Positions 1 through 61,686 of a stretch of 64,000 nucleotides of DNA are shown here, one piece after another. The position numbers were made by a program, and so were the translations under genes. Each line of letters starts with the position of its first letter. The stretch's first letter is position 1. Under the pieces are notes generated by a model. It was given only the letters and a program-made list of their open reading frames with translations. It searched no databases and had not been told where the DNA came from. Location of the stretch: positions 306 through 64,305 of the forward strand of contig CAZQIZ010000009.1 in the NCBI GenBank assembly GCA_964593585.1, written 5' to 3'. Origin of the DNA: an uncultured Ignavibacteria bacterium. GTDB taxonomy: Bacteria; Zixibacteria; MSB-5A5; WJJR01.

Positions 1-35
1 TGAAGAGTCCTGCACCCTGGCCCAGGAGGTGGGTC

Positions 36-3000
36 GTGAAGTGTATCTGTACCAGCGGTCGAACTACCAAGGCGCGATGTCGTGGCCTGCTGGTAGTCTC
101 GACCCTGCTCGTCGCGTTCGCGCTGGTCTCCAACGCGTTCTCCGCTTCAGATCCGGAACCATCCCCGCTCTTCCAGCACAGTCTCAAAACCTCGATCGAA
201 AAATTTGAGGAGCCGAATGCCGCCGCCAAGCCCGCCTACCCGGCGAAGCAGGCCAGGCCGCATCCGGAGCAGGCCCCCAATCCCGGCGCCGCCGGTGCCA
301 AGATGGCGACACTCGACGGTACCTACACCTGCACTGGGACTCCCACATGTGACGGGACGGCCACCTGCACCGGCGAGATGACCTGCAACGGCGCGCCCGA
401 CTGTCTGCCGCCGACCATGCCGGGATTCCCGACCTGCATCGGCACCCAGAGTTGCGAGGGGACGACCACCTGTCCCGGCACCGCCTCGTGCGCCGGCACC
501 GCGTCGTGCGATGGCTCGACCACCTGCTCCGGCCAGCAGACCTGCCCCGGCACCACCACCTGCGAGGGCACGCTGACCTGTCCGGGCTCGACCACCTGCA
601 GTGACCAGCCGACGTGCGGCGACCAGCCGACCTGTCTGCATTTCCCGACCTGCAACATGCAGCCGACCTGCGATGGCAAGCCGACCTGTTACAACACGGC
701 CAGTTGCCATGGCTCGATCACCTGCGATGCCGCCACGCCGACCTGCGATCAATCGCCGACCTGCGGCGGCACCGCCACCTGTACCGCGGGCGCGACCTGC
801 GATGGCACCGCCACCTGCGGCGGCGTCTCCTGCGCGGCTGGCGGAGCGACCTGTCCCGGCTACGTCACCTGCTCCGGGTCGAATACATGCGATCCAACCG
901 GCCCGACCTGCGATGGTTCGCCCTCGTGTGATGCCACCGGCGCCACCTGTGCCGGCCATCCCACCTGTCCGGGCAGCACCACCTGCAGCACCGAGCCATC
1001 CTGCGACGGCACCGCATCGTGCGCGGCCACGGTCGCGACATGCCAGGGCACAGCCAGTTGTCCCGGCTGGGCCACCTGCCAGGGGAGTGTGACCTGCCTG
1101 GGGTCGACCGGCGCCACCTGCGACGGCAACCCGACATGCAAGGGCTACGCGACCTGTAACAACGCGACCACTTGCGTCGGCTATCCGTCTTGTCCGGGCA
1201 CCTACACCTGCGAAGGATATCACACCTGCGCGGGCGCGGCGACTTGCGCCAGCAATCAGACCTGTCCGGGCACGCCAACCTGCGATGGCACCACCACTTG
1301 CGGAGCCGGTCTGCCCACTTGCGGGACTGCGGCCACATGCAGTGGCCAGAACACGTGCAACGCCAGTCTGACTTGTCCGGGCTCCAATACCTGCACCGGC
1401 ACCCAGACTTGCGACGCACAAGCCAGTTGCCCCGGCAGCGCCACCTGCGCCGGACAACAGACCTGCGCCGGCACCGTGACCTGTCAGACCGCGGCGACAT
1501 GCAATGTCACCTGCAACACCACGGCAACATGCACCGGTTACAACACCTGCTCGTGGTCGAACACCTGCCCCGGCACACCGACCTGCTCGGATCTGCAGAC
1601 CTGCGCCAATCAGCCCACCTGTCCGGGCGGAGCGGCCACCTGCCAGGGCACCACGACCTGCCACAACATCACCTGTTCCGATGTGCCGACTTGTCCGGGT
1701 TATCAGACCTGCGAGGGCTCCTACACGTGCGTGGGCTCGCCGACCTGTCCGAATCAAGCGACCTGCACCGGCTTCCAGACCTGCGCCGGCACCCCGACCT
1801 GCGCGCCGCTGCACACGTGCGGCGGAGCGGCCACCTGCGCCGGCACCGCGACCTGTTCGCCCACATTGCTGACCTGCGCCGGCCAGTTCACCTGTGCTGG
1901 CTCGATCACCTGCGCCGATGTGGTGACTTGTCCGGGCACACAGACCTGTCTGGGGTCGATCTCGTGCGGCCATACGATCACCTGCGCAGCGCTGTCGACC
2001 TGCCCCGGTTCGCCGACCTGCAAGGGCGCGACAACCTGTAAGGGCCAGGTGACCTGCAAAGGCGCGGCCACCTGTATCGGCATGCCAAGTTGCCCGCAGT
2101 CGGTCAGTTGCGCGGTGGTGACCTGCTCGCCCAGCCCGACCTGTGGCCAGCATTTCTCCTGCTGGGGACAGGCGACCTGCGCCGGTCAAAACACCTGCGC
2201 CGGCAATCCGTCATGTTTGGGTGCGGTCTCGTGCATCAACGCCAAGACTTGCGCCGGCGTGGCGACCTGCCATGGCGCACTGACCTGCCCGGGCACTCAG
2301 ACCTGCAATGGCACCACCTGTCCGGGTTCGGCGACCTGTCCGGATTCATATTCGTGCAGCGGCTTCAATACCTGCTCCGGCAGTTCCACCTGCCCGGGCA
2401 GCCCAACTTGCTGCACGCCGACATCGCCGGGATGGCCGACCTGTGAAGGCACCACCACCTGCTCCGGCTTCATGCCGACCTGCGGCGCGTGGGGACCGAC
2501 CTGCACCAACTGGCAGACCTGCACCGGCATGCCGACCTGCGGCAAGACACCGACCTGCAGCGCGACCGGCGTGACCTGCACTTCGCAGCCGACCTGCTGC
2601 TGGACCGGCACCTGCCAGGGCTCGCCGACCTGCGTCAATCAACCGACCTGCGACTTCGCCACCTGCGAAGGCAGCGTGACCTGCTTCGGCGCCTACACCT
2701 GTCAGGGCAACGTCACCTGCGAAGGCGGCGCGACTTGTCACTACTCGACCACCTGTGAGGGCTACCACACCTGCCCGAACAGCCCGACCTGCGACCATCA
2801 GGCGACCTGCGCCGGATTCACGACCTGCGTCGGCACCACGACCTGCGATGGGCCGACCTGCAACGGCACGATCTCCTGCGCCGGCACGCCGACCTGTCCC
2901 GGTCAGGCCACCTGCGCGCACACCGCGACCTGCTGGGATACGCACTCCTGCCAGGGCAACGTGACCTGTCCGGGCACAAGCACCTGCCAGGCGGCCACCT

Positions 3001-3335
3001 GCGCCGGCACCGCGACCTGCGGCGGCTACTTCACCTGCGGCCAGGCGGCCTGTGTGGCGACCTGCGTGTGCACCTGCCACGGCGACGCCAACTGCGACGG
3101 CGTCAAGGTGGATGTGCGCGACGTGGTCATTGCCATCAACATCGCCTTCCGCGGTACGCCTTCAACCTGTGATCCAGGTTGCCCGGCCGAACGCACCGAC
3201 GTCAACTGCGATGGCGTGAGCAACGTCGTCGACGTCGTCAAGATGGCCACCGTCGCCTTCCGCGGCGGCGACCCGGCCGTCGAGTTCTGCAACCCGTGCG
3301 ACACCGCGCCGCCAGGCGGCTCGACCTGCAATTAG
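36..3335 (+). CDS. Secreted 1099-aa Cys/Thr heptad-repeat protein (~130 imperfect x-G-x-x-T-C-x repeats) ending in the shared dockerin-like Cys-containing C-terminal module
   Basis: GTG start at 36 preceded by AGGAGGT (24-30). N-terminal signal peptide LLVVSTLLVAFALVSNAFSA. Residues ~95-1005 have Cys spaced every 6-7 residues (TCPGTAS-CAGTAS-CDGSTT-C...), with a matching 21-nt periodicity of ...acctgc... in the DNA. C-terminus CHGDANCDGVKVDVRDVVIAINIAFRG...TDVNCDGVSNVVDVVKMATVAFRGGDPAVEFCNPC has two D-x-N-x-D-G loops each followed by a helix, and is shared with five other proteins in the window. TAG stop followed by a terminator hairpin. Confidence 0.8.
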   Translation: MKCICTSGRTTKARCRGLLVVSTLLVAFALVSNAFSASDPEPSPLFQHSLKTSIEKFEEPNAAAKPAYPAKQARPHPEQAPNPGAAGAKMATLDGTYTCTGTPTCDGTATCTGEMTCNGAPDCLPPTMPGFPTCIGTQSCEGTTTCPGTASCAGTASCDGSTTCSGQQTCPGTTTCEGTLTCPGSTTCSDQPTCGDQPTCLHFPTCNMQPTCDGKPTCYNTASCHGSITCDAATPTCDQSPTCGGTATCTAGATCDGTATCGGVSCAAGGATCPGYVTCSGSNTCDPTGPTCDGSPSCDATGATCAGHPTCPGSTTCSTEPSCDGTASCAATVATCQGTASCPGWATCQGSVTCLGSTGATCDGNPTCKGYATCNNATTCVGYPSCPGTYTCEGYHTCAGAATCASNQTCPGTPTCDGTTTCGAGLPTCGTAATCSGQNTCNASLTCPGSNTCTGTQTCDAQASCPGSATCAGQQTCAGTVTCQTAATCNVTCNTTATCTGYNTCSWSNTCPGTPTCSDLQTCANQPTCPGGAATCQGTTTCHNITCSDVPTCPGYQTCEGSYTCVGSPTCPNQATCTGFQTCAGTPTCAPLHTCGGAATCAGTATCSPTLLTCAGQFTCAGSITCADVVTCPGTQTCLGSISCGHTITCAALSTCPGSPTCKGATTCKGQVTCKGAATCIGMPSCPQSVSCAVVTCSPSPTCGQHFSCWGQATCAGQNTCAGNPSCLGAVSCINAKTCAGVATCHGALTCPGTQTCNGTTCPGSATCPDSYSCSGFNTCSGSSTCPGSPTCCTPTSPGWPTCEGTTTCSGFMPTCGAWGPTCTNWQTCTGMPTCGKTPTCSATGVTCTSQPTCCWTGTCQGSPTCVNQPTCDFATCEGSVTCFGAYTCQGNVTCEGGATCHYSTTCEGYHTCPNSPTCDHQATCAGFTTCVGTTTCDGPTCNGTISCAGTPTCPGQATCAHTATCWDTHSCQGNVTCPGTSTCQAATCAGTATCGGYFTCGQAACVATCVCTCHGDANCDGVKVDVRDVVIAINIAFRGTPSTCDPGCPAERTDVNCDGVSNVVDVVKMATVAFRGGDPAVEFCNPCDTAPPGGSTCN

Positions 3336-3355
3336 TTCGCTTTGACATGCTCGTC

Positions 3356-3396
3356 CCGAGCGGGGAGTCGCACGACTCCCCGCTCGTTTTTTTTTG
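3356..3396 (+). terminator. Rho-independent terminator (GC stem gagcggggagtcg / cgactccccgctc followed by T9)
   Basis: Perfect 13-bp inverted repeat with a 3-nt loop, followed by ttttttttt, immediately downstream of the stop at 3335. Confidence 0.65.
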
Positions 3397-3494
3397 CGCC
3401 GTCGCCGCGCCCGAGTTTTTCTCTTGTTGATCCCCGACGCGCGCCGCTCCTTGATGCGACGGCGGAGGAGACCCGGCCGCATCGAGGAACAAAC

Positions 3495-4337
3495 ATGACC
3501 AATCGCAGCGAACCGGAAGATCACTGGTGGGAACGCTCCCGCTCCTACATCCGCGCCTACGAGGACCTCGAATTCCTCCGCCAGGATGAACTGCGCCCCG
3601 TGCGGCTGCAACTCGAACTGCTCAAGCCGGAGCTGACCCTCCAGAAGCACCGCATTCGCTCCACCATCGTGGTCTTCGGCGGCACGCGCATTTGGGAGAA
3701 ACCGGATGCCGAACGGCGTCTGTCGGAGCTGGACGCGCAATTGAAGGAGCATCCGAAGGACCCGCGGTTGCGCACGCTCCGCAAGGCGGCGGAACGGCTG
3801 CTGTCGCTGTCGCGCTTCTACGACGAGGCGCGCAAGTTCGGACGGATCGTCTCCGAGGCCAACCGCAGCGATGGCTCCGTCGACTATGTGATCGTCACCG
3901 GCGGCGGCCCCGGCATCATGGAGGCGGCCAACCGCGGCGCCTATGACGTCGGCGCCGAGTCGATCGGCTTCAACATCACGCTCCCCCACGAGCAGCGGCC
4001 CAATCACTACATCACGCCCGACCTCTGCTTCCAGTTCCGCTACTTCGCCATCCGCAAGATGCACTTCCTCCTGCGCGCCAAGGCGCTGGTGGCCTTCCCC
4101 GGCGGCTATGGCACCATGGACGAGCTCTTCGAGGCGCTCACGTTGGTGCAGACCCAGAAGGTTCCGCCCTTGCCGGTGGTGCTGATGGGACGCGAGTTTT
4201 GGAAGGATGTCCTCGACTTCGACGCGCTGGTCGAAAACGGCGTCATCGACCCTGAGGACAAGGACCTCTTCATCTACGCCGAAACCGCCGAAGAGGCCTG
4301 GGACTACATCCGCGAATTCCGCGCCAATCAGACGTAG
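3495..4337 (+). CDS. LOG-family protein (TIGR00730-type Rossmann nucleotide-binding protein; putative cytokinin-riboside 5-prime-monophosphate phosphoribohydrolase / nucleotide nucleosidase)
   Basis: ATG at 3495 with GAGGA RBS. Motifs VTGGGPGIMEAANRGA (GGGxGxM) and FPGGYGTMDELFE (PGGxGTxxE) are diagnostic of the LOG family. The longer ORF-track version starting at 3342 runs through the upstream terminator and is unlikely. Confidence 0.8.
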   Translation: MTNRSEPEDHWWERSRSYIRAYEDLEFLRQDELRPVRLQLELLKPELTLQKHRIRSTIVVFGGTRIWEKPDAERRLSELDAQLKEHPKDPRLRTLRKAAERLLSLSRFYDEARKFGRIVSEANRSDGSVDYVIVTGGGPGIMEAANRGAYDVGAESIGFNITLPHEQRPNHYITPDLCFQFRYFAIRKMHFLLRAKALVAFPGGYGTMDELFEALTLVQTQKVPPLPVVLMGREFWKDVLDFDALVENGVIDPEDKDLFIYAETAEEAWDYIREFRANQT

Positions 4338-4518
4338 TAGTCATTATCATCCGCGACCTCGTATTTGCGCCACGCATCTGTCATTTCAGACCGTTCGCGG
4401 CGCCCCGTGCCGCGAACGGTTTGCTGGCTTTGCCTTTCAGGAGGACAGACATTCTTGTCTGTCCATCGCCGCGTGATGCGGGTCCGTTTTTATGACCCGC
4501 CGAACGAGGCGATACGCA

Positions 4519-4618
4519 CGGCAGGGATGCCCGTCCGCGCCATGCCGTTCCCGATCGCGCGGCAAAAAAGCGCCCCGCAATCGGGAACGGCAGGTCAGAC
4601 AAGAATGTCCGACCTCCT
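4519..4618. repeat. Copy 1 of a ~100-bp structured direct repeat (internal inverted arms gccgttcccgatcgcg / cgcaatcgggaacggc around cggcaaaaaagcgcccc)
   Basis: About 95% identical to 5679-5777. Sits in a hairpin-dense intergenic region (4340-4730) that also contains accgttcgcggc/gccgcgaacggt and ggacagaca-ttct-tgtctgtcc hairpins. Confidence 0.6.
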
Positions 4619-4731
4619 CATCAAGGGCCAATGTCGCCTTCGCTCCGCCATCTCGCCGCCAGCTTGACAAACAGGAGCGGGTGTCATACTCTTTCATTGT
4701 AAGCGGCCCGCCATTTGTCCTCGGAGGAAAC

Positions 4732-5657
4732 ATGTCGTTCTTCAGGACCCTCTTCGCGTCCGCGATTCTCGTCGCCATGGTGGTTCATCCCGCGTTCGCC
4801 GACAATTCCATCGTCGTCGAGTCCCGTACCTTCGCGCCTGGACAGACCGTCTGCACCGTCGGCGTCTTCGTTTCCAATGAGGTCCCGATTGTCGGCATGG
4901 TCTTCCAACTCGAGGCTCGCGCGGTCTCCGGAGGCGCCTACTTCGTCGGCCCGGTAGGTTCATCATTCTTCCAAGTGCGGGCCGGCGCACGCGTGGATGC
5001 GTCTCCGCTGGGTTCGGCCGACCCGTTGGGGCGTTGGCCGGAAGCATTGTGCACACGCCGCCGTTTCGCCACGCCGGCCGCGACCAACAGTTGCAGCGGC
5101 CCGGTGTCGAGCACATGGGCAACCCCGACCGCCTCGGTCGACGGCATCAGCCCGGACCCCGTCGAGTACGCACCGTCAGCGTTGCCGATCCGCAGGCGGA
5201 TGAGGAGTATGCCCTGGCGGCCGGAGCCGATCCCGCCACCCGCGACAGCGCGTCCTTCTTCTTTGTTTTCGATGTGAACACGAACATCGGTTGCTTCGAG
5301 ATCGACTCCTGCTGCACCACGCCGGCCAATCACATCGCCTTCGTCGATGAATTCACCAATGCCATCGTGCCGTCTTTCACCAAGGGCACGATCTGCATTT
5401 CCGGCTGCTTCTGCGAGTGCCATGGCAATCCCGCCGTGGCAAGCAATCCGAACATCGATGTTCTCGATGTCGTTTACACCCTCTACGTCGCCTTTCGAGG
5501 GCAATCGAGTATCCCGGATACCAGCCCCGTGTGCCCGGTGAATGCCACCGACGTGGACTGCAATGGCCACAGCGATGTCATTGATGTCATCAAGATGATT
5601 GACGTGGCCTTCCGCTCCGCCGACCCGGCCTCGGTCTTCTGCGACCCCTGCCCTTGA
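4732..5657 (+). pseudogene. Secreted small protein with the dockerin-like C-terminal module, split by an apparent frameshift (N-terminal part in frame of 4732, C-terminal part in frame of 5034)
   Basis: ATG at 4732 with GGAGGA RBS and signal peptide MSFFRTLFASAILVAMVVHPAFA. The plausible protein sequence continues in a different frame from ~5150 on (TVSVADPQADEEYALAAGADP...CFCECHGNP...DVDCNGHSDVIDVIKMIDVAFRSADPASVFCDPCP) and ends at 5657. The frame-1 ORF degenerates into Arg/Pro-rich sequence before its stop at 5277. The shift is somewhere in 5000-5180. Confidence 0.45.
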
Positions 5658-5678
5658 CCGGTGACGCGAATAATCGTT

Positions 5679-5777
5679 GCGGCAGGGATGCCCGTCCGCG
5701 TAATGCCGTTCCCGATCGCGGGGCAAAAAAGCGCCCCGCAATCGGGAACGGCAGGTCAGACAGGAATGTCTGATCTC
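5679..5777. repeat. Copy 2 of the ~100-bp structured direct repeat
   Basis: gcggcagggatgcccgtccgcg..atgccgttcccgatcgcg.ggcaaaaaagcgccccgcaatcgggaacggcaggtcagaca.gaatgtc matches 4519-4618 with ~5 mismatches. Same orientation; the two copies flank the frameshifted gene. Confidence 0.6.
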
Positions 5778-5925
5778 CTATGAGAAACTTCTTTTCAATT
5801 GGGTCGCGGCGTCTTGTGCCGCGACCGGCTTGGAATCTTTGTTCCCCCGACCGCTTGCCAAATCCGCAAAATCCCGTACCTTGCGGAGTGATTTGCTCGT
5901 TTTACTTCACACAGACGGACTGCGA

Positions 5926-8631
5926 ATGACAATCAAACGTGTATTGCTGACCGCCGGCGCGCTGCTCGGCGTGGCCATCGTGTACCTGTCCCTGACCCAG
6001 CGCGAGCGCACTTCGCCCTCGCGCGCCTACTTCACCATGGTGCATGACTTTGTCGCCCAACGCGGCAAGGTTCCCAAGGCCAAGGCCCGTCCCAACGACT
6101 GGTTCTACCTCCAACGCGCCTGGCCGGGAGACGATGTCCCCGTCGAGGCGCGCATGAAGGCGAAGAACAAGGCGCTCGACCTCCAGCGCGCGTCCGCCGC
6201 CAAGGACGCCCAAACCGCGCCGGTCTGGTCCGATGCCGGACCGACCAACATCCCCGGACGGGTCGTCGACCTTGCCATCAATCCCTACAACTCCAGCATC
6301 GTCTTCGCCGCCTCGGCCGCCGGCGGTGTGTTCAAGTCAATCGATGGCGGCAACAATTGGACGCCGATCTTCGATGACCCCGGGCCGCAGCCGATGGGCG
6401 CGATCGCGATCCACCCGATCAACGACAACATCCTCTATGCCGGCACCGGCGAAGCCAACGCCGCCACCGACAACTACGAGGGCACCGGCATCTACAAGAC
6501 CATCGACGGCGGCGCATCCTGGACCCTGGTGGGCCTGCCCAACAGCTACAGCATCGGCCGCATCGTCATCGATCCCCTCCGCCCCGAAACCGTCTATGTC
6601 GCCGTCGCCGGACGCATGTTCGGCACCAATCCCGAACGCGGCCTCTACCGCTCGCAAAACGGCGGCGCCAGTTGGGAGCAATTGCTCTACATCAACGACA
6701 CCACCGGCTGCATCGATGTCGCCTTCCATGCCTCCACCGGCACCATTCTCGCCGGCATGTGGCAGCGCTGGCGCAATCCAATGCAACGGCAGGCGGGGGG
6801 ATGGTCGACCGCGATCTGGCGCTCGACCGACTTCGGCGCAAACTGGACGAAGCTCAATGGCGGTGTGACCCCCGGATTCGGATTGCCGGCGCCGTCGGCG
6901 ATCCTCGGACGCATCGGCCTGGCACTGACGCAAAACTCCGAGACCGTCTACGCGATGTTCGATGAGCATCCCGGCAACTTCGCCGGCATCTACCGCAGCG
7001 ATGACCTCGGCGGTTTCTGGTCGCGTGTCAACGATGCCGCCTTGAGCGGCTTTACCGGCGGATTCGGGTGGTATTTTGGCCAGATCCGCTGCCACCCCGG
7101 CGATCCCGAGGTGGTCTTCGCGCTCGGTGTGCCGCTCTACAAATCCGTCGACGGCGGCGCCTCCTGGAGTGAGATGGCCGGCAACATCCACGTCGATTTC
7201 CACGCGCTCGCTTTCAGCCCCACCAACAGCAACCAGATCTACCTCGGGGGCGACGGCGGCGTGGCCTACAGCGCCGACGGCGGCAACAACTTCACGCCGC
7301 GCGCCAACATGGGCAATTCGCAGTTCTATGCCATGACCATCGACAAACTCAATCCCGAACGTCTCTACGGCGGCACGCAGGACAACGGCACCCTGCGCAC
7401 GCTCACCGGCGCGCTCAACGATTGGGATCACATCCTCGGCGGAGATGGTTTCTACACCGTGGTCGATTTCACCAATTCCAACGTCATCTACGCCGAATTC
7501 CAGAACGGCTACCTGCTGAAATCCCCCGACCTCGGCGCGAATTTCTACTACGCCATGAACGGCATCGACTATAACAATGACCGACACAACTGGTCGACGC
7601 CCTTTGAGATGGCGCCCTACAACAACAATGTTCTCTACTACGGTTCCCATCGGCTGTATAAGACCAGCGATGGCGCCGCCAATTGGGCGCCGATCTCCGG
7701 CGATCTGACCGATGGCGATGATCCCGGCAACCTCGCCTTCGGCACCATCACCACCATTGGCGTGTCGCCCAACACGCCGGGCGTCGTCTACGTTGGCACT
7801 GACGACGCCAATATCTGGGTGACGCAGAATGACGGCGGCAACTGGACGAATATCACAGCCGGACTGCCCAACCGCTGGGTCACGCGCCTGACCGTCCACC
7901 CGACCAATCCCGCCATCGCCTATGTGACCCTCTCCGGTTACAAACTCGCCGACCATGAGGCGCACATTTACCGGACCAGCAACTATGGCGCGGCCTGGAC
8001 ACCGATCGCCGGCAACCTCTTCGATGCGCCGATCAACGATGTTGTCATCGATCCCGACTATCCCGATTCAGCGCTCTACATCGGCACCGACTATGGCGTC
8101 TACATGACTCATGACGGCGGCCAGAACTGGATCCCGCTCGATCAGGGGATGCCGCTTTTGACCCCCGTCCACGACATCGATTTCCATCAGGGCACGCGCA
8201 AGCTCGTCGCCGGCACCCATGGCCGCTCGATGTTCAAGACCACCGTTGCCTGCCCCGACGTAGTCGATGCCGACGGCGACAATGTCATGGATTTCTGCGA
8301 CAATTGCCCGGCCGCGAGCAATCCCGGTCAGGAGGATGCGGACGCCGATGGCATCGGCGACGCCTGCGAGGCCTGCGCCTGCGCCTGCCATGCCGATCCG
8401 CTCTGCGATGGCATCCGCAACAACGTGCAGGATGTCGTGCTCAGTGTCAGTGTCGCGTTCCGCGGCGCGGCCATCGCTCCCGATCCCAGCCCGACCTGTC
8501 CGCGCGAACCCACCGACGTGAACTGCGACGGCGTCACCGGGGTGGTCGATGTCGTCAAGATCGTCAATGTGGCGTTCCGTGGGGCCAACCCGCTCACGGA
8601 ATACTGCAACCCGTGCCCGCCGACTTCCTGA
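5926..8631 (+). CDS. Secreted BNR/Asp-box repeat beta-propeller protein (sortilin/Ycf48/GH74-like) with thrombospondin-type-3-like Ca-binding repeats and the shared dockerin-like C-terminal module
   Basis: At least 9 S-x-D-x-G-x-x-W Asp-boxes (SIDGGNNWT, TIDGGASWT, SQNGGASWE, STDFGANWT, SVDGGASWS, SADGGNNFT, TSDGAANWA, QNDGGNWT, TSNYGAAWT). DADGDNVMDFCDNCPAASNPGQEDADADGIGDACE repeats. C-terminus CACACHADPLCDG...TDVNCDGVTGVVDVVKIVNVAFRGANPLTEYCNPCP. Start set at ATG 5926 (MTIKRVLLTAGALLGVAIVYLSL signal/anchor); an upstream in-frame ATG at 5830 is possible. Confidence 0.75.
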   Translation: MTIKRVLLTAGALLGVAIVYLSLTQRERTSPSRAYFTMVHDFVAQRGKVPKAKARPNDWFYLQRAWPGDDVPVEARMKAKNKALDLQRASAAKDAQTAPVWSDAGPTNIPGRVVDLAINPYNSSIVFAASAAGGVFKSIDGGNNWTPIFDDPGPQPMGAIAIHPINDNILYAGTGEANAATDNYEGTGIYKTIDGGASWTLVGLPNSYSIGRIVIDPLRPETVYVAVAGRMFGTNPERGLYRSQNGGASWEQLLYINDTTGCIDVAFHASTGTILAGMWQRWRNPMQRQAGGWSTAIWRSTDFGANWTKLNGGVTPGFGLPAPSAILGRIGLALTQNSETVYAMFDEHPGNFAGIYRSDDLGGFWSRVNDAALSGFTGGFGWYFGQIRCHPGDPEVVFALGVPLYKSVDGGASWSEMAGNIHVDFHALAFSPTNSNQIYLGGDGGVAYSADGGNNFTPRANMGNSQFYAMTIDKLNPERLYGGTQDNGTLRTLTGALNDWDHILGGDGFYTVVDFTNSNVIYAEFQNGYLLKSPDLGANFYYAMNGIDYNNDRHNWSTPFEMAPYNNNVLYYGSHRLYKTSDGAANWAPISGDLTDGDDPGNLAFGTITTIGVSPNTPGVVYVGTDDANIWVTQNDGGNWTNITAGLPNRWVTRLTVHPTNPAIAYVTLSGYKLADHEAHIYRTSNYGAAWTPIAGNLFDAPINDVVIDPDYPDSALYIGTDYGVYMTHDGGQNWIPLDQGMPLLTPVHDIDFHQGTRKLVAGTHGRSMFKTTVACPDVVDADGDNVMDFCDNCPAASNPGQEDADADGIGDACEACACACHADPLCDGIRNNVQDVVLSVSVAFRGAAIAPDPSPTCPREPTDVNCDGVTGVVDVVKIVNVAFRGANPLTEYCNPCPPTS

Positions 8632-8814
8632 TGAGTCGCTGGACAATGTGGCAGGCGCACGATGCCGGCTCATCCCGCCCGGGATGGGCCGGCTCGTTTT
8701 TGGCTGTTTACTATCTGCCCTCCGCGCTATCTTGCGGCGGTAATCGAATCGACATCTGCACTTCCGCGCATCGGAAGCTTGTGCGCCGTTTCGCAAATAG
8801 GCTGGAGAGAGACC

Positions 8815-9417
8815 ATGGCCACAATCCACAACGCGGTTGTCACGATCAGTCTCGGACTCGGAATCGCGCTGCTCGCGCCGCGCGGCGCCGCGGCGCAGGC
8901 GCCGCCGATTCTTCAGCCCTGCCCCTGCCTGCTGGCCCAGGGGCCGGGCGGCCTCCCTGCCGAATCGCTCGCCCTACGTCTCGATACGCTACCCGGCTAT
9001 GTCTCCCCAGACAAGGCGTTCAATTACTCACTGTTGGGGACCGTACTCCCCGTGGCGACGCTGGTCGCGGCCTACCCCGGCTTCCTGTTTGGACCATCGC
9101 TCGGCTACTTCCATGCCGGTCAGCCGGGACGCGCCTGGACCGGCATCGGCATTCGCGCGCTGGCCACCGGCGGGATGGTCTCCGCCTTTGTGATCTGCGG
9201 CTGGGACTGCGGGGAGGGAGACTCGGCCTACAACATTGCGTGGGTCGTCTTTCTGGCCTCCGGCGGTACATTCATCGGCTCAGCGATCTATGACATCGCC
9301 ACCGTCAAGGGCGCGGTCCGCCGGCAGAACGAACGCCTCAAAGTCGCCTGGTCGATTTCACCGCGCTACGCGGCCAGCAGGGGAGAAGTGGGCCTGCAAT
9401 TGCGACTGACGTTTTAG
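8815..9417 (+). CDS. Hypothetical secreted/membrane protein (~200 aa)
   Basis: ATG at 8815 after GGAGAGAG. N-terminal signal-like hydrophobic segment, then a further hydrophobic Gly-rich region. No recognisable family. The ORF-track version starts earlier, inside the preceding gene tail. Confidence 0.4.
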   Translation: MATIHNAVVTISLGLGIALLAPRGAAAQAPPILQPCPCLLAQGPGGLPAESLALRLDTLPGYVSPDKAFNYSLLGTVLPVATLVAAYPGFLFGPSLGYFHAGQPGRAWTGIGIRALATGGMVSAFVICGWDCGEGDSAYNIAWVVFLASGGTFIGSAIYDIATVKGAVRRQNERLKVAWSISPRYAASRGEVGLQLRLTF

Positions 9418-12115: not shown

Positions 12116-13699
12116 ATGCACAACGTGTGCCGATTCTCATCGCTGACCGCGGCGGTCGCTTTATCACTCCTGGCCATTGGCCCGGCCACGGCGGGCGCGC
12201 AAGGAATCACCAGCTTCACCGCATCCCCGTGCGTGCTCAGCGTGCAATGGCAGGCCGACGGCGATGCGGCGGGCGACTTCTTCGGCTTCTCTGTCGACGG
12301 TAACGCCGATTTCAACGGCGATGGCAAACCCGACATTCTGGTCGGCGCGATGCTGGGCGACATCGTGTATGGCTACTACATCAGTCCCATGGGTGTCTTC
12401 GAGCGCGGGGTCTGGTGGAACGGCGTCAGCGGATCGGATTTCGGCCGCTCGGTTCGCTTCCTCGGCGTGCCGGACAATGACCTGCACGGCACCGCTTCGG
12501 CTCTCATCGGCGCCCCGGGACACTCGGGCGCCGGGTTCGACAGTTGCGGCTTTGTCCACGAGCGCGGGCGCAGTAACCTCTTCGGCTGGATCGGGGAAGC
12601 GACGGGGGAGAAGCTGGGCTATTCGGTCGGCAACGTCGGCGATCTCGACGGTGATGGCTTCGATGAGATCATCGCCGGCGCTCCTGAGGCCGCGGGTGCG
12701 CTCGGTCCCCGCGCCGGCTACGTGCTCCTGCTGTCGCAGAATCCCGGCAGCGGCTACCTGATCCGTCGATATGATCGCGGCGTGCCGAATGAATTGTTCG
12801 GACGCGCCGTGGCCGGCGCCGGGGATGTCGACGCCGATGGTGTCAACGATGTCCTCATCGGCGCGCCGTACACATCCCGGATCGGTCCCGTGCTGCTGCC
12901 CGTCGGCGCCGCGTATGTCTATCGCACCGACGGCACCGTCATCTGGACGTTTTACGGCGAAACCGCGGGTGACTACTTCGGCAACAGCGTCGCCACCGCC
13001 GGCGACGTCAACGCCGACGGCCATCCCGACATCCTCGTCGGCGCCTGGCTCGCCGACGTCAACAGCATGCATGATGCCGGTGCCGCCTACGTCTATTCCG
13101 GCGCCGACGGTTCATTGCTCTACAGATTCGTGGGCGAGGGGCCGTCGCACTGCTTCGGCTACTCGGTGCGCGGTCTCGGCGACATCGATGCCGACGGCTA
13201 TGATGACTTCATCATCGGCGCCCACCGCGCCGATCTCAACGGCACCACCGACGGCGGCGCAGTCTATGTCTACTCCGGCCGATTGGGCAATTACCTCTGG
13301 ATCATTACCGGTCTGCACTCTGACGACATCTTCGGCGTCTCCGCCGCGGCCGCCGGCGACATGACCCTCGATGGCCACCCCGATTTCATCGTCGGCGCCT
13401 TCGGCACCGACCCCGACGGCCGCGTCGACGCCGGCTCCGCCTTTCTCTTCGGCTGCGCATGCGATTGCGCCTACAACGGCGACCCCGCCCATGACGGCAT
13501 CACCGATGTCCGCGATGTCGTGATCACCGTCGGCGTCGCCTTCCGCGGCACGGCCTCCGAGCAGGGCGTCAGTTGCCGCTACCAGGATCCGGACGTCAAC
13601 TGCTCCGGTGCCTGCGACGTCGTCGATGTCGTCAAGATGGTCAACGTCGCCTTCCGCGGCGGCAACCCGGCCACGGAATTCTGCGATCCCTGCCCGTAG
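12116..13699 (+). CDS. Secreted FG-GAP (integrin-alpha-type) beta-propeller repeat protein with the shared dockerin-like C-terminal module
   Basis: ATG 12116 after GGGAGGT. Signal peptide AAVALSLLAIGPATAGAQG. Repeated FGxSVxxAGDVNGDGxxDLxVGA motifs (GDFFGFSVDGNADFNGDGKPDILVGA, FGRAVAGAGDVDADGVNDVLIGAP, FGNSVATAGDVNADGHPDILVGA, FGYSVRGLGDIDADGYDDFIIGA, FGVSAAAAGDMTLDGHPDFIVGA). C-terminus CACDCAYNGDPAHDGITDVRDVVITVGVAFRG...DVNCSGACDVVDVVKMVNVAFRGGNPATEFCDPCP. Confidence 0.8.
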   Translation: MHNVCRFSSLTAAVALSLLAIGPATAGAQGITSFTASPCVLSVQWQADGDAAGDFFGFSVDGNADFNGDGKPDILVGAMLGDIVYGYYISPMGVFERGVWWNGVSGSDFGRSVRFLGVPDNDLHGTASALIGAPGHSGAGFDSCGFVHERGRSNLFGWIGEATGEKLGYSVGNVGDLDGDGFDEIIAGAPEAAGALGPRAGYVLLLSQNPGSGYLIRRYDRGVPNELFGRAVAGAGDVDADGVNDVLIGAPYTSRIGPVLLPVGAAYVYRTDGTVIWTFYGETAGDYFGNSVATAGDVNADGHPDILVGAWLADVNSMHDAGAAYVYSGADGSLLYRFVGEGPSHCFGYSVRGLGDIDADGYDDFIIGAHRADLNGTTDGGAVYVYSGRLGNYLWIITGLHSDDIFGVSAAAAGDMTLDGHPDFIVGAFGTDPDGRVDAGSAFLFGCACDCAYNGDPAHDGITDVRDVVITVGVAFRGTASEQGVSCRYQDPDVNCSGACDVVDVVKMVNVAFRGGNPATEFCDPCP

Positions 13700-13992: not shown

Positions 13993-16365
13993 ATGAGACA
14001 CATCCTGCAGTGGGCCTTTGCCCTCACCGTGCTTGGGTCCACCTTGACGCTGGCGGCCGTCCCCACCACGCTCAATGACTTCTTACTCCCGGGCTCACAG
14101 CCGACCCAATCCGGCCAACTCGAAACACCGGACAAATGCGACAACTGCCACGGCGGCTATGATCCCGCCGTCGAGATGGCGTTCAATTGGCGCGGCAGCA
14201 TGATGGCCCAGGCCGCCCGCGACCCTCTCTACTTCGCCTGCCTGGCCATCGCCAACCAGGATGCGCCGGAAAGCGGCGATCTGTGCATCCGCTGCCACTC
14301 ACCGGCCGGCTGGCTGGAGGGCCGCTCGATCCCCACCGACGGTTCGGCGCTCAACCTCAATGACCGCCAGGGCGTCCAGTGCGACTTCTGCCACAAGTTC
14401 GTCAAGCCGACTCCGATTGGAACCAACCCGTATCCCGCTGACGCGTCTTACACTGCTGGCACCTACCCGCGTGATCAGATCTATCTGGGGAACATCGACC
14501 CAATCCCCACGCACTCGGCCAACGGCATGTATGTGGTGGACAGCGACAATTCCAAGCGCGGACCCTACACCGACCCAAACGCGAAACACCAGTTCTTCTA
14601 TTCGCCGTTTCATCGCGCTGCCGCCCTCTGTGGCACCTGCCATGATGTGTCCAACCCCGTCTACATGAAGGTGGCCGATCGCGACTACGTGCCTAACACC
14701 TTCGACCAGCCATCCCCCAGCTTCGATCCCTACACCATGTTTCCGATCGAGCGCACCTTCAGCGAATGGCTGATGAGTGATTACAACACCCCGGCCGGTG
14801 TCTACGCGCCGCAGTTCGGCGGCAACAAGCCCCACGTATCCACCTGCCAGGACTGCCACATGAAGGATGTCACCGGCGTCGGCTGCAACAAGGCCGGCAC
14901 CCCGACCCGTACCGACCTGCCGTTCCATGACATGACCGGCGGCAACACCTTCATGCCCGACATCGTCGCGGCGGTCTTTCCGGCCGAGGTCAATACAGCG
15001 GCGCTGGATGCCGGCGAGGCGCGCGCGCGCGGCATGCTGCAGAAAGCCGCTTCCATGGCGCTCTCTGCCACTTCTGGCGCTGGAATCCATGACCTGCGGG
15101 TCCGCATCACCAACGAAACCGGCCACAAGTTGCCGTCGGGCTATCCCGAAGGGCGACGCATCTGGATCAACGTGCGCGCCTTCGACATCACCGGGCTGCT
15201 GGTCTATGAATCCGGCGCCTACGATCCGGCCAGCGCGGTACTGTCTCATGACGCGCACGCCAAGATCTACGAGATCCATCCCGGCATTTCGTACAGCGCC
15301 AGTCCCATTCTCGGTCTGCCGCCGGGCAAGTCCTTCCACTTCGTCGTCAACGACACAATCTGGTCCGACAACCGCATCCCGCCGCGCGGTTTCACCAACG
15401 CCGACTTCGAGATGATCCAGTCGCCGGTGGTTGGATATGCCTATCCCGACGGTCAGTACTGGGACGACACGCACTACCCGGTTCCCGGGATTGCGCGCAC
15501 AATTATCGCCACGCTGTATTACCAGACCACATCGAAAGAGTACGTTGAGTTTCTCCGCGACGAGAATCGCTCGAACGACTGGGGCGACTCGCTCTACAAC
15601 CTATGGGCCGCGCACGGGAAATCCGCGCCGGTTTTGATGGTCTCCGACACTCTGCTGGTTGTGCCCACTGCCGGCGACACCGATGGCGACGGCATCCCCG
15701 ATGTGACCGATAACTGCCCGACGGTGCCCAACCCCGCACAACTCAACGCCGATGGCGACGCCTATGGCGCGGCGTGCGACTGCGACGACGCCAGCGCGCA
15801 GGTCTATCCCGGCGCGTCCGAGCTGTGCAACGGGATCGATGACAATTGCGACGGCCTTATCGACAGCAACGCGGTCAATGCGCCGACTTGGTATGCCGAC
15901 GCCGACAACGACACCTGCGGCAACCTGGCGATCACGAAGCTTCAATGCACTCAGCCGACCGGCTATGTCGCCAACAGCTCCGACTGCAATGATGGCAACG
16001 CGCAGGTCCATCCCGGCGCCCCCGAACTGTGCAACGGCATCGATGACAACTGCAACGATGTGACCGACGAAAGCTGCGAGTGCGTGTGCGCCTGCCACGC
16101 CGATCCCGTCTGCGACACGATCATCGTCAATGTTCTTGATGTCGTCAGCGTGGTCAACGAGGCCTTCCGCGGGGCAGTGGCGATCACCGACCCGACGCCA
16201 TGCGCCTACAGCCCGTCCGATGTCGATTGCAGCGGCCTGATTAGCGTGCTCGATGTCGTGCGTATTGTAAACGTCGCCTTCCGTGGGAACAACCCCGCCA
16301 CGGAGTTCTGTTCACCGTGCCCGCCGGCGACCGAGACCCGCGCCGGGTCGGGCTTAACGGACTAA
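13993..16365 (+). CDS. Secreted multiheme c-type cytochrome (5 CxxCH) fused to Cys-rich metal-binding-type repeats and the shared dockerin-like C-terminal module
   Basis: Signal peptide MRHILQWAFALTVLGSTLTLAA. Heme motifs CDNCHG, CIRCHS, CDFCHK, CGTCHD, CQDCHM. Later DTDGDGIPDVTDNCPTVPNPAQLNADGD and two C-D-C-D-D-x-x-A-x-V-x-P-G-A-x-E-L-C-N-G-I-D-D-N-C repeats (MopE-like putative metal-binding motif). C-terminus CECVCACHADPVCD...SDVDCSGLISVLDVVRIVNVAFRGNNPATEFCSPCP. Confidence 0.8.
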   Translation: MRHILQWAFALTVLGSTLTLAAVPTTLNDFLLPGSQPTQSGQLETPDKCDNCHGGYDPAVEMAFNWRGSMMAQAARDPLYFACLAIANQDAPESGDLCIRCHSPAGWLEGRSIPTDGSALNLNDRQGVQCDFCHKFVKPTPIGTNPYPADASYTAGTYPRDQIYLGNIDPIPTHSANGMYVVDSDNSKRGPYTDPNAKHQFFYSPFHRAAALCGTCHDVSNPVYMKVADRDYVPNTFDQPSPSFDPYTMFPIERTFSEWLMSDYNTPAGVYAPQFGGNKPHVSTCQDCHMKDVTGVGCNKAGTPTRTDLPFHDMTGGNTFMPDIVAAVFPAEVNTAALDAGEARARGMLQKAASMALSATSGAGIHDLRVRITNETGHKLPSGYPEGRRIWINVRAFDITGLLVYESGAYDPASAVLSHDAHAKIYEIHPGISYSASPILGLPPGKSFHFVVNDTIWSDNRIPPRGFTNADFEMIQSPVVGYAYPDGQYWDDTHYPVPGIARTIIATLYYQTTSKEYVEFLRDENRSNDWGDSLYNLWAAHGKSAPVLMVSDTLLVVPTAGDTDGDGIPDVTDNCPTVPNPAQLNADGDAYGAACDCDDASAQVYPGASELCNGIDDNCDGLIDSNAVNAPTWYADADNDTCGNLAITKLQCTQPTGYVANSSDCNDGNAQVHPGAPELCNGIDDNCNDVTDESCECVCACHADPVCDTIIVNVLDVVSVVNEAFRGAVAITDPTPCAYSPSDVDCSGLISVLDVVRIVNVAFRGNNPATEFCSPCPPATETRAGSGLTD

Positions 16366-16384: not shown

Positions 16385-17920
16385 ATGCGACACCATTTCC
16401 GATTGATTGTTCCCGTTCTGGGGCTGTTCCTAGGATTTGCAGCGCCGACAGCCTTTAGCGATACCCTGCCGATCGAATTATTCCGCGGCGCCGATGGTCA
16501 GATCGATGTCGCGGCGGTCCGCGACTCAAGTCTGAATCATGCGATCGACCTGACGGCGCTTTCCATCAGTGATCCACCGGCTGCCTCGAGGCTGGCGCCC
16601 TGCGCCTGGAGCGCCACGCCGACCGGCGTCAGCAATTGGGTCTACGCGCTGGCCACCCACAACAACGATCTCTATGCCGGAGGATTATTCACCACGGCCG
16701 GTGGCGCGACCGTCAATCGCATCGCGCGCTGGGACGGCGTCGCCTGGAATCCACTGGGCGGCGGCATGAACAGCGGCGTGCTCGCGTTGGCTTCCTTCGG
16801 CGACCTGCTGATCGCCGGCGGATCGTTCGCCGTTGTCGATGGCGACTCGATTCCGCGCATCGCGGCATGGGATGGCAGCGACTGGATTCCGCTGGGCTCC
16901 GGCATGAATGACCGTGTGTATGCGCTGACCGTCTACAACGGCCGGCTGATTGTCGGGGGGGACTTTACGCTCGCCGGCGGTGTCGCCGCCAGCCATGTCG
17001 CCGCGTGGGATGGGGTCGCGTGGAGTCCGCTCGCGGCCGGAATCAACGGCCGCGTCTACGCCTTTACCGCCTACGAGGGCCGTCTTATTGCCACCGGCGA
17101 GTTCAGCGAGGCCGGCGGTGCGCCCGCATCGAGCATCGCCGCCTGGGATGGCGTCTCATGGTCCGCCCTCGGCGATGGCATCCATCGCGTGGGCTATGCG
17201 CTGGCCGTCTACGGGTCCGAGCTCATTGTGGGCGGACAATTCACCGCCTCCGGCAATCAGCCCGGCCCCAATCTCGCGTCCTGGGATGGCACGACCTGGT
17301 CCACACTCGGCGGCGGTGTTGCCACCGCGGTCAACGCCCTCCTGGTCGACTCCGGTTCACTCTATGTGGGCGGCTGGTTTACCAGCGCCGGCGGCGCCCC
17401 GGCCCTGCGGGTTGCGCGCTGGGATGGCGCCGCCTGGAATGCCCTCGGCGGCGGGATGGGAAGCCCGGTCAATGCGCTTTCGCTCTATCAGGGCAATCTC
17501 ATTGCCGGCGGGATGTTCACGACCGCCGATGGTCTTTCCGTTGGATACATCGCGGGATGGAGCATGGATCGCGACGGCGACGGCGTCTGCGCCGGCGACA
17601 ACTGTCCCGACGTCTTCAACCCCGATCAGGCCGACAGCGACGGCAACGGCGTCGGCGATGCTTGCGAATCGTGTGCCTGCGACTGCCATGCCAATCCCGT
17701 CTGCGATCTGCCCGAGCCCGATGCGCGCTCGGTGATCGCGATCATGAACGTGGCCTTCCGCGCCTACCCCGACATCATCGATCCGTCGCCCACCTGTCCA
17801 TTTACCACGACCGATGTGGATTGCGATGGCGTCACCACGATTCTCGATGTTCAGCGCATGATCAACGTCGTCTTCCGCGCCGGCGATCCGGCGACGGAGT
17901 TCTGCCTTCCCTGCGACTGA
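16385..17920 (+). CDS. Secreted seven-bladed beta-propeller repeat protein (46-47-aa A-x-W-D-G-x-x-W-x-x-L-G-x-G repeats) with TSP3-like linker and the shared dockerin-like C-terminal module
   Basis: Signal peptide. Seven tandem repeats (RIARWDGVAWNPLGGGMN..., RIAAWDGSDWIPLGSGMN..., HVAAWDGVAWSPLAAGIN..., and so on). Then DRDGDGVCAGDNCPDVFNPDQADSDGNGVGDACE and CACDCHANPVCD...TDVDCDGVTTILDVQRMINVVFRAGDPATEFCLPCD. Confidence 0.75.
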   Translation: MRHHFRLIVPVLGLFLGFAAPTAFSDTLPIELFRGADGQIDVAAVRDSSLNHAIDLTALSISDPPAASRLAPCAWSATPTGVSNWVYALATHNNDLYAGGLFTTAGGATVNRIARWDGVAWNPLGGGMNSGVLALASFGDLLIAGGSFAVVDGDSIPRIAAWDGSDWIPLGSGMNDRVYALTVYNGRLIVGGDFTLAGGVAASHVAAWDGVAWSPLAAGINGRVYAFTAYEGRLIATGEFSEAGGAPASSIAAWDGVSWSALGDGIHRVGYALAVYGSELIVGGQFTASGNQPGPNLASWDGTTWSTLGGGVATAVNALLVDSGSLYVGGWFTSAGGAPALRVARWDGAAWNALGGGMGSPVNALSLYQGNLIAGGMFTTADGLSVGYIAGWSMDRDGDGVCAGDNCPDVFNPDQADSDGNGVGDACESCACDCHANPVCDLPEPDARSVIAIMNVAFRAYPDIIDPSPTCPFTTTDVDCDGVTTILDVQRMINVVFRAGDPATEFCLPCD

Positions 17921-20915: not shown

Positions 20916-20926
20916 GAGGCCTTGTC

Positions 20927-23494: not shown

Positions 23495-23583
23495 CGTCAG
23501 CGCGCCGACAATACCGAACGCGGTGTTTGTCCCAGTTGGACACCGATTCACCTCTCATCGCTGGAGCTTTGGTGGAGGACCTC

Positions 23584-25623: not shown

Positions 25624-25756
25624 TCACGGCCATCTCGCCTGAACCAACCGTGACCTTCTGCCAGCTCTTGCCCGCGCTCGGAAGCGAAGTGTGCCGTGCG
25701 CCCGCCGACTTTCCCCGGCGAATGAGGTTGAATTTCCTCCCTCTTTTGGCCGAGCT

Positions 25757-25770
25757 GGACTATATTAATC
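25757..25770 (+). promoter_or_regulatory. Conserved GGACTATATTA motif (-10-like TATATT) 66 nt upstream of the paralog D start
   Basis: The same CAGACTATATTAC motif lies 70 nt upstream of the paralog E start (28711-28725). AT-rich hexamer in an otherwise GC-rich intergenic region. Confidence 0.25.
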
Positions 25771-25835
25771 CCGATTTCCGTCTCGGACGGACGCAGTCTG
25801 CCCGTTTACCGCTGTCTGCCAATTTGGAGGACCTT

Positions 25836-28586: not shown

Positions 28587-28600
28587 AAATCTGACACGGC

Positions 28601-28651
28601 CGATCCGCTTTCGCCCACTTTCCTGACCACAGGAGCGGCGAAAGCGGATCG
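28601..28651 (+). terminator. 15-bp inverted repeat (cgatccgctttcgcc ... ggcgaaagcggatcg) immediately after the paralog D stop; possible terminator or regulatory stem-loop
   Basis: Perfect 15-bp arms separated by a 21-nt loop. No T-tract, so function as an intrinsic terminator is uncertain. Confidence 0.3.
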
Positions 28652-28710
28652 CGCCAGTCCGGTTTGAACCCCGGAATCGGGCCGAAATCCCTCTCCTACT
28701 TCTTTCAGAT

Positions 28711-28725
28711 CAGACTATATTACTC
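28711..28725 (+). promoter_or_regulatory. Conserved CAGACTATATTAC motif (-10-like) 70 nt upstream of the paralog E start
   Basis: Matches the motif upstream of paralog D. Confidence 0.25.
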
Positions 28726-28794
28726 GCAAATCCCGTCACCGCGACGGCCGCTGTCTTACCTGTTGTTAAAACTGATCGTACCAGGAGGTCGCCA

Positions 28795-31302: not shown

Positions 31303-31313
31303 GGAGCGCTCTT

Positions 31314-33587: not shown

Positions 33588-33640
33588 TGAAATCGGAGTT
33601 TTTGCTCGCCCGTATCTGGGCGGATTGACAGGAGGTCCCG

Positions 33641-61534: not shown

Positions 61535-61600
61535 TTTACCTCTCCCTCAGGGAGAGGTCGTCCCTGCCGTAGGCAGGGGCGGGTGAGGGGACCGGGCGCA
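61535..61600. repeat. Family-2 palindromic repeat (cctctccctcagggagagg + tcgtccctgccgtaggcaggggcgggtgagggg)
   Basis: Near-identical to 51796-51850 in the first hairpin. The second hairpin is a variant (ccctgcc/ggcaggg). Confidence 0.5.
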
Positions 61601-61686
61601 TGACCAGATTCCAGTCATCCCCGTGCATTCAATACGACAGCCAAGCGAGCGATCCCCACAACACCATCATCCCTCCAAGGACTCAC

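Follow-up and report, generated by a model that had tools for sequence, protein, structure and literature searches.

How a gene with a promoter of its own came to stand between two nearly identical hairpin-forming repeats, and how it came to be broken, are the questions raised by a short interval of contig CAZQIZ010000009.1 (assembly GCA_964593585.1) from an uncultured Ignavibacteria bacterium, placed among the Zixibacteria in the GTDB lineage. The window is the whole stretch of this contig that was analyzed, 64,000 nucleotides (nt) in length, and the interval lies between a gene of the LOG family and a gene for a protein with BNR repeats. The gene between the repeats, here called the cargo gene, encodes a predicted small secreted protein and is frameshifted. 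A preliminary description made from the sequence alone saw in the arrangement a small cassette with a decaying or phase-variable cargo, bounded by recombination or terminator-like elements. The comparison with relatives suggests a more passive role for the repeats. They probably resemble repetitive extragenic palindromic (REP) elements and miniature inverted-repeat transposable elements (MITEs) that flank an accessory gene, and recombination between them would have deleted the gene in a sister lineage, while a frameshift inactivated it here.

The two repeats lie in the same orientation, 1161 nt apart, and each is 100 nt long. They are 94% identical, in good agreement with the first estimate (~95%, with the second copy at 5679-5777 rather than 5680-5779). 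In each copy, designated T-B-S, a 24-nt tail (T) is followed by a 21-bp hairpin (B) and then by S, a 9-10-bp hairpin with CCTCCT after it. Internal inverted arms had been noticed before and are indeed present in B, but they measure 21 nt rather than 15 nt (4543-4563/4572-4592 in copy 1 and 5704-5724/5733-5753 in copy 2) and enclose an 8-nt A-rich loop. Folding of the element, which had been proposed as a check, shows that both copies fold far better than shuffled sequences on either strand, with z-scores from -6.9 to -9.0. The region was rightly called hairpin-dense, since the intergenic sequences 4338-4731 and 5658-5925, folded as single strands, have z-scores of -8.1 and -5.9 against shuffled sequence. 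Comparison of B with its counterpart in L082, the collinear relative considered below, reveals five pairs that are changed on both sides with the pairing kept (from the window to L082, pair 5 G-C to A-T, pair 7 T-A to C-G, pair 8 C-G to G-C, pair 16 C-G to G-C and pair 20 G-C to C-G), and one pair that is broken. All three copies share a C.A mismatch at pair 14. These compensatory substitutions point to B being maintained as a structure.

The closest named relatives of the neighboring genes are Zixibacteria and GN15. L082, a contig of a metagenome-assembled genome (MAG; GCA_035559435.1), is collinear with the window. Its positions 469-5083 correspond to window 1-4619 with 92% identity and its positions 4984-8431 to window 5680-9174 with 89% identity, and these two alignments overlap by exactly the sole T-B-S of L082, which aligns to both window copies. 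Exactly 1161 bp are missing from L082, namely the promoter, the cargo gene and one of the repeats, and the ends of the missing stretch fall within the repeat. L082 retains the other hairpins of the locus (A, S', C and A', Table 1) together with its T-B-S. In this comparative sense the small cassette exists, whereas a dedicated site-specific system behind it is not supported. In four outgroup lineages (L083/84, L085-88, L089-91 and L092) the LOG gene is followed directly by the BNR gene, and their intergenic regions of 85-281 nt contain none of the modules and, at that position, no cargo homolog.

The synonymous divergence (dS) of the LOG and BNR genes is 0.19-0.22 between the window and L082 and 1.1-1.5 between the window and the outgroups, while the dS of the cargo gene is 0.35 between the window and L001 and 0.82 between the window and L002, two lineages that possess the gene. 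If synonymous rates are roughly equal, the branching order would be (((window, L082), L001), L002), outgroups, and it would imply a single gain and then, in L082, a secondary loss at the direct repeats. A loss fits the layout of L082, in which A and A', both terminator-like, enclose no gene. The window copies of T-B-S are 94% alike and each is 78% identical to the L082 copy, compared with 81-83% for the adjacent intergenic DNA. Where copy 1 and copy 2 differ, comparison with L082 gives no clean crossover switch.

The cargo gene (4732-5657) needs one frame change, which had been placed between 5000 and 5180 and is located at 5171/5172, where one base is missing. The N-terminal frame runs to a stop codon ending at 5277 and overlaps the C-terminal frame over ~5030-5277. 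At the deletion site the window has GTCGAGTACGC-ACCGTC, while L001 has GCGACC and L002 has GCCACC, which leaves a single gap in the DNA alignment. When the conceptual fusion at 5171/5172 is used as a protein query, two intact proteins match it from end to end, P0001 (308 aa, 90% identical over 100% of the query), encoded in L001, and P0002 (307 aa, 78% identical), encoded in L002. A sequencing indel in a GC-rich homopolymer had been offered as the trivial explanation, but the site (TACGC/ACCGTC) is neither a homopolymer nor a simple repeat and has no X XXY YYZ slippery heptamer, and the same deletion is found in at least seven independent assemblies, namely five Joint Genome Institute (JGI) contigs of differing lengths, the NCBI contig and Logan contigs. 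The products of the frameshifted open reading frames (ORFs) are on record as P0003 (NCBI, 94,073-bp contig), P0027 (the five JGI contigs) and P0028 (Logan), the JGI and Logan versions being reached through cluster members. Two contigs with the deletion are 100% identical to the window, L057 over 1600 nt and L058 over 1180 nt, and the latter was found in two samples. Among 5.8 billion clusters there is no intact protein with ~100% identity, the best intact one being at 90%. The nature of the site, the recurrence across independent assemblies and the lack of an intact protein of ~100% identity indicate that the deletion is a real, apparently fixed allele. The frameshift falls at residue 147 and breaks the cohesin-like domain. 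The frame-restored gene has a dN/dS of 0.16 in all three pairwise comparisons among the window and the two orthologs, and contains no other lesion. Its value equals that between the orthologs, and the inactivation is therefore recent. The cargo is thus decaying, as proposed, in that the frameshift allele alone was recovered at ~100% identity. The proposal of a phase-variable cargo is not supported, as the site lacks sequence features for slippage and the databases contain no intact allele of this lineage.

The palindromic modules around the repeats form a mosaic. The three further upstream hairpins pointed out previously are real (A, with arms 4387-4401/4409-4423; a small hairpin at 4443-4464; and C at 4478-4500). 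Two additional features emerged, a third, inverted copy of S that includes the small hairpin (S', 4439-4464) and a diverged repeat of hairpin A downstream of the cargo gene (A', 5793-5835). Hairpin C has a conserved counterpart in L082, and L001 contains its 3' half. When the upstream region is folded at minimum energy, S' forms a stem with the S of copy 1 around C, T and B, which gives 4439-4618 the appearance of a 180-nt unit like a MITE or a REPIN (an inverted doublet of REP sequences). This unit is also present in L082. An nhmmer alignment places a degenerate B-S unit in inverted orientation at 4439-4507. Hairpins A and A' are diverged members of a palindrome family with relatives at 48769-48801 and 60556-60588, which consist of ATTCCAAGCCGGCGCTCT(A/T)TGCCGGCTTGGAAT followed by a T-rich tail and lie between convergent genes; the A of L082 has the exact 3' half of the window's A'. 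Rfam gives no match at the gathering threshold in the whole window, and at E <= 10 only sub-threshold generic hairpin matches (CC1840 and mir-8515) on 4300-5950.

Table 1. Features of the locus and of related modules, in window coordinates.
Feature	Position	Strand	Details
LOG-family (TIGR00730-like) gene	3495-4337	+	Conserved left neighbor; Pfam Lysine_decarbox, 6.9e-31
Hairpin A	4387-4423 (arms 4387-4401/4409-4423)	+	15-bp stem, then T-rich tail; terminator-like, 50 nt past the LOG stop codon
S', inverted copy of S	4439-4464	-	AGGAGG + GGACAGACA-TTCT-TGTCTGTCC; covariance model, 47.7 bits
Hairpin C	4478-4500		GCGGGTC / 9-nt loop / GACCCGC; read from sequence
Repeat copy 1 (T-B-S)	4519-4618	+	T 4519-4542, B 4543-4592, S with CCTCCT tail 4593-4618
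Unit absent from L082, 1161 bp	4619-5779, equivalently 4519-5679	+	Promoter, gene and one repeat
Putative cargo promoter	4664-4692	+	TTGACA-N17-TACTCT; read from sequence
Cargo ribosome-binding site	4723-4727	+	GGAGG
Cargo gene, 5' part	4732-5171	+	ATG at 4732; signal peptide and first part of cohesin-like beta-sandwich
Frameshift site	between 5171 and 5172	+	One base absent; GC-ACC versus GCGACC and GCCACC
Cargo gene, 3' part (-1 frame)	5172-5657	+	Rest of cohesin-like domain, Cys-rich linker, dockerin-like two-helix module
Repeat copy 2 (T-B-S)	5680-5779	+	T 5680-5703, B 5704-5753, S 5754-5779
Hairpin A'	5793-5835	+	18-nt arms, then TCTTTGTT; terminator-like, at the place of the cargo gene's terminator
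Putative BNR gene promoter	5855-5882	+	TTGCCA-N16-TACCTT
BNR/Sortilin-Vps10 repeat protein, 901 aa	5926-8631	+	Conserved right neighbor; same C-terminal module as the cargo
Shared C-terminal module	3180-3299, 5532-5651, 8497-8616, 13574-13693, 16201-16320, 17795-17914

The small hairpin S belongs to a dispersed family. The pattern GGWCAGNCANGAATGTCNGWNCTCCT occurs in 54 stretches of species-representative genomes, while ~0.3 would be expected in 596 Gb from its information content. Most of these stretches are in Planctomycetota MAGs (18 in CAYGZI01, 7 in DATECS01 and 5 in JAFGPV01) and a few are in Calditrichota, Ignavibacteria, Opitutales, Armatimonadetes and Acidobacteria MAGs. After the collection of partner copies, 89 instances are available. 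Their stems covary, position 3 showing four types of pair and position 7 both A-U and G-C. Covariation scores 0.224, compared with 0.088 in shuffles, a value that 0 of 500 shuffles reached, and 93% of stem cells are paired, compared with 24-45% for slid registers. Exceptions of both G.U type and A.C type occur on both strands, which fits a hairpin at the DNA level. The instances are mostly intergenic, with no bias in orientation relative to the flanking genes. They form 23 pairs in (-,+) arrangement with the AGGAGG heads outward, including S'...S of the window, and two sites have the opposite arrangement. Start-to-start spacing is 154 nt for the pair in the window, and 30-72 nt elsewhere. The end tag is AGGAGG/CCTCCT and is one base off in a few instances, including the L082 copy and the second window copy. 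In its arrangement the S family appears to be like REP elements, bacterial interspersed mosaic elements (BIMEs) and REPINs. A 26-nt AGGAGG/CCTCCT hairpin is nearly identical across Planctomycetota, Calditrichota, Ignavibacteria and the Zixibacteria-like lineage, and is absent from Rfam and the searchable literature; a full-text search with S sequence variants gave no paper, and a keyword search for Planctomycetes repeats gave nothing specific.

The surroundings of the S modules were inspected for recurrent partners. All-against-all clustering of the neighboring ORFs revealed no recurrent gene family beside S. A probe for REP-associated tyrosine transposases (RAYTs) found two Y1_Tnp ORFs, one in L047 and one in L054; both lie 3-4 kb away from S doublets and neither adjoins S. 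The one in L047 (3500-4174 on the minus strand of the Thermoguttaceae MAG contig DATECS010000132.1) is RAYT-like, with HVH and YIHNNPV motifs, and is flanked by repeated CACTGGC..GCCAGTG palindromes that are different from S; it appears to form a REP-RAYT system of its own, alongside the S doublets of the same genome. A GC-rich hairpin with an A-rich loop directly precedes S in L017 (~6590-6615, minus strand) and in L054 (~3198-3226, plus strand; Ignavibacteria MAG contig CAYJMP010000002.1). One example is CCGGTCCCGC-AAAGAA-GCGGGACCGG, and the B-then-S layout is that of the window repeat, in a different phylum. A pattern spanning the B/S junction retrieved 23 stretches from a metagenome collection without the source sample, some identical across several contigs; they were read as chance matches because none continues into the rest of the S module.

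These observations can be joined into one history. The accessory gene with its own promoter would have entered the LOG-BNR intergenic region once, in one Zixibacteria-like clade, along with the palindromes A, S', C, T-B-S and A' of the mosaic. T-B-S would be a composite DNA hairpin element, with its S drawn from a REP/REPIN-like family of dispersed intergenic palindromes, and the repeats would serve as passive recombination substrates. In the L082 lineage, homologous recombination between the copies would have removed the gene and one copy, leaving one copy and the orphan terminator A'. In the window lineage the two copies may have been homogenized by gene conversion, provided that both predate the split, and homogenization would also keep the repeats good substrates for recombination. 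The cargo of the window lineage would have been inactivated recently by the 1-nt deletion after 5171. Sister lineages would then have lost the same gene, an accessory gene for a surface protein, in two ways, by frameshift and by repeat-mediated excision.

Several observations weigh against this history. The dS values behind a loss in L082 stem from different genes. The contigs of L001 and L002 end inside the repeat, as is expected of de Bruijn contigs at a two-copy repeat, and their flanks are mostly unseen. L001 has no upstream T-B-S, so that the bracket varies across lineages. In its place, at L001 30-82, are 52 nt of unrelated sequence that include an oppositely oriented, diverged S-like hairpin (GGAGG-GGCGAG-TCTTG-CTTGCC), indicating that the region was rearranged between close lineages. 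L082 is a single MAG contig, in which the assembler may have skipped a repeat-bounded segment, and a site-specific mechanism would yield the same indel. A dispersed T-B-S family is not supported, since nhmmer finds no extra T-B-S among the fetched loci or elsewhere in the 64-kb window. With the covariance model run with filters off, the window has no S beyond the three at the studied locus. The AGGAGG/CCTCCT tag of S is not the GTAG or CGTC tag that the described REP superfamilies carry at one stem end, according to PMC3733652, and in the fetched loci the RAYT probe gave no Y1_Tnp ORF next to S.

The alternatives were weighed against the same evidence. If the frameshift were an artefact of assembly or sequencing, or a reversible (phase-variable or programmed) one, the gene would be functional. 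The source is a metagenome-assembled contig, and a dN/dS of 0.16 with no other lesion would suit a functional gene. However, the recurrence of the deletion in JGI, NCBI and Logan assemblies, the unremarkable sequence of the site, the lack of an intact ~100% protein and a break within the cohesin-like beta-sandwich make this explanation extremely unlikely. Another explanation takes T-B-S as a functional element of the transcript (a 3'-end stabilizer, insulator, terminator or shared leader), with the bracket and the indel as by-products. Copy 2 begins 22 nt past the cargo stop codon and has its B at 47 nt, the usual position of terminator hairpins in the window, and compensatory changes conserve the fold of the element. 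The C.A mismatch reads as a G.U wobble on the minus strand, so that the minus-strand RNA folds of T-B-S are perfect. Stabilization of mRNA and termination of transcription are also established roles of REPs (PMC3733652). However, the terminator-like character first ascribed to the 100-nt element is not borne out. No T-run follows B (GGTCAGAC) or S (CATCAAGG or ATGAGAAA), whereas T-rich tails follow A, A', the hairpins after the genes ending at 3335 (3357-3386, with T9) and 8631 (8664-8693), and the hairpin at 48769-48801 (with T7). A consensus terminator scan of T-B-S returned only spurious minus-strand sites that use the T-run of the loop. Each intergenic region already has an A-type hairpin with a T-rich tail, and the outgroups have the same neighboring genes without any of the modules. 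The lack of an Rfam match at the gathering score, of orientation bias in S modules and of a strand preference in the G.U-type and A.C-type exceptions points in the same direction. A transcript-level function of T-B-S would be compatible with passive recombination between the copies and, as the primary role of the element, is unlikely.

More far-reaching is the idea that T-B-S is the attachment site of a dedicated hairpin-recognizing recombination system, integron-like or RAYT/Y1-like, in which a circle of promoter, gene and T-B-S integrates into a resident T-B-S and L082 represents the empty site. The presence or absence of exactly one ORF and one repeat, with a single copy at the empty site, is what such a system would produce. 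As an imperfect palindrome the repeat resembles attC sites in length, its pair-14 mismatch is kept across five compensatory changes, and the window copies are far closer to each other than to the L082 copy, as after a recent integration. In being dispersed and often paired as inverted doublets, the S hairpins recall REPINs. An attC site has an inverse core R'' (RYYYAAC) at its 5' end and a core R' (GTTRRRY) at its 3' end, with an unpaired central spacer and extrahelical bases. Neither strand of T-B-S contains this core, the only GTT being in GTTCCCG and the only AAC in GGGAACG, with the wrong order and the wrong flanks, and the L082 copy has neither GTT nor AAC. Hairpin B, with its 8-nt loop, is a near-perfect stem of 21 bp in which one or two pairs are mismatched, and it lacks the attC-type spacer and extrahelical bases. 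The 31 window ORFs scanned contain no integrase, transposase, Y1 or other recombinase domain. Furthermore, there is a single cassette in the 64-kb window, which has its own promoter, the dS ordering makes the state of L082 a secondary loss, and L001 has the gene without the upstream copy. A dedicated system is therefore quite unlikely, and its integron-cassette form was rejected on the sequence of the element. It is very unlikely that the S and B-S hairpins are recognition sites of an undescribed single-strand-DNA recombination system that spread horizontally across phyla. If it were true, such a system would move single genes with their promoters as cassettes, with T-B-S as the attachment site and L082 as the empty site. 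Passive repeats that flank an accessory gene remain the reading that the evidence favors.

The cargo protein belongs to no Pfam or NCBIfam family and has no cohesin or dockerin match at curated thresholds. A sequence search of the PDB returned only designed propeller proteins and was judged not meaningful. In an AlphaFold2 model based on 18 homologs (mean pLDDT 83.9), a signal helix precedes a beta-sandwich (residues ~25-223), and the C-terminal part forms two helices (244-256 and 283-295). In Foldseek searches against the PDB, all of the top 20 matches are cohesin modules (E 3e-7 to 4e-4, probability 1.0, TM 0.6-0.68 on the target), and the model conforms to the cohesin fold, a nine-stranded beta-sandwich. 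The label of a dockerin-tagged gene is weakly supported by the two-helix C-terminal layout of the model and not by Pfam Dockerin_1 (PF00404), which finds nothing on the cargo and reaches E = 0.079 on a paralogous module (13.6 bits, cut-off 22.9). The C-terminal module carries a D-x-D-x-N-G...D loop. The modeling thus predicts that the cargo is small and secreted and that it joins a cohesin-like beta-sandwich to a dockerin-like module at the C-terminus. This Cys-framed module of ~85 aa ends six secreted proteins of the window (Table 1). The 1099-aa ORF at 36-3335, nearly all of which consists of ~170 tandem 18-nt (6-aa) repeats of C-x-G-x-x-T, closes with a module of the cargo type, and orthologs of 1076-1107 aa hold the same position in all relatives.

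The neighbors of the cargo gene are conserved, and LOG orthologs hold the same position in all relatives. The extent of the LOG gene is that of a 280-aa gene call made on the JGI contig. Exact look-ups of the 331-aa LOG ORF and of P0003 gave no match, and a homolog search with the N-terminus of the BNR protein did not return its close orthologs. The promoter-like motif of the cargo gene is identical in L001 and partly conserved in L002, and went unreported in a consensus scan because its -10 hexamer fits at only 3 of 6 positions. The promoter-like motif of the BNR gene is shared by the window, L082 and three outgroup lineages, the second hexamer being TACATT in L085. Elsewhere in the window, at 19242-35731, seven paralogous genes with many 45-nt (15-aa) repeats lie in tandem, and the three that were scanned end in Peptidase_S74, the endosialidase intramolecular chaperone, as in proteins of the tail-spike or fiber type. 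The ORF at 61600-62790 has a Phage_capsid_4 match just above the cut-off (E 2.8e-6), with neighboring ORFs that have no Pfam match, and may be a prophage remnant.

The locus documents how palindromic intergenic repeats may drive gene turnover in an uncultured phylum. Repeat-mediated loss of accessory genes and REP-like mosaics are already known, and in this respect the case is largely ordinary; the AGGAGG-tagged hairpin family and the secreted proteins of the cohesin/dockerin type are possibly worth a closer look. The likeness to integron cassettes with attC sites, as in clusters of attC sites lacking an integron-integrase (CALINs) and the VCRs of Vibrio, is that one ORF stands between direct imperfect palindromes of ~100 nt and that relatives differ by exactly one ORF and one repeat. 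The locus differs in having no R''/R' cores or attC-type bulges, no array and no intI within 64 kb, and in the cargo having its own promoter. Bacterial MITEs (Correia, ERIC, RUP and the enterobacterial RU; PMC3184786, PMC2229807) resemble the 4439-4618 unit, whose 26-nt inverted termini S' and S can close one long hairpin and which only some of the orthologous intergenic regions possess. The unit differs from them in having no target-site duplication at its ends and no identified parent insertion sequence, and the duplicated T-B-S is only part of it, without a second full unit in the window or the fetched loci.

The REP, BIME and REPIN sequences, as described by Bertels & Rainey 2011 (PMC3116915) and Di Nocera et al. 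2013 (PMC3733652), are a class that S resembles in form, being a short GC-rich imperfect palindrome with an unpaired end tag. It is also intergenic, has several copies per genome in other genomes, occurs in two sequence variants and often forms inverted doublets. Like REP sequences, it is part of a mosaic with other hairpins and a potential substrate for deletions and duplications. REP classes are usually lineage-specific, while nearly the same 26-mer is found in several phyla, and only three copies, all at one locus, are present in the 64-kb window. The cargo protein is comparable to the cohesin-dockerin proteins of cellulosomes in its cohesin-fold model and its terminal two-helix dockerin-like module. 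Its module is Cys-framed, its host is Zixibacteria-like rather than a cellulolytic Firmicute, and no partner is known. The union of a cohesin-like fold and a dockerin-like module in the secreted proteins of this Zixibacteria-like lineage nevertheless hints at a surface assembly system in the style of the cellulosome.

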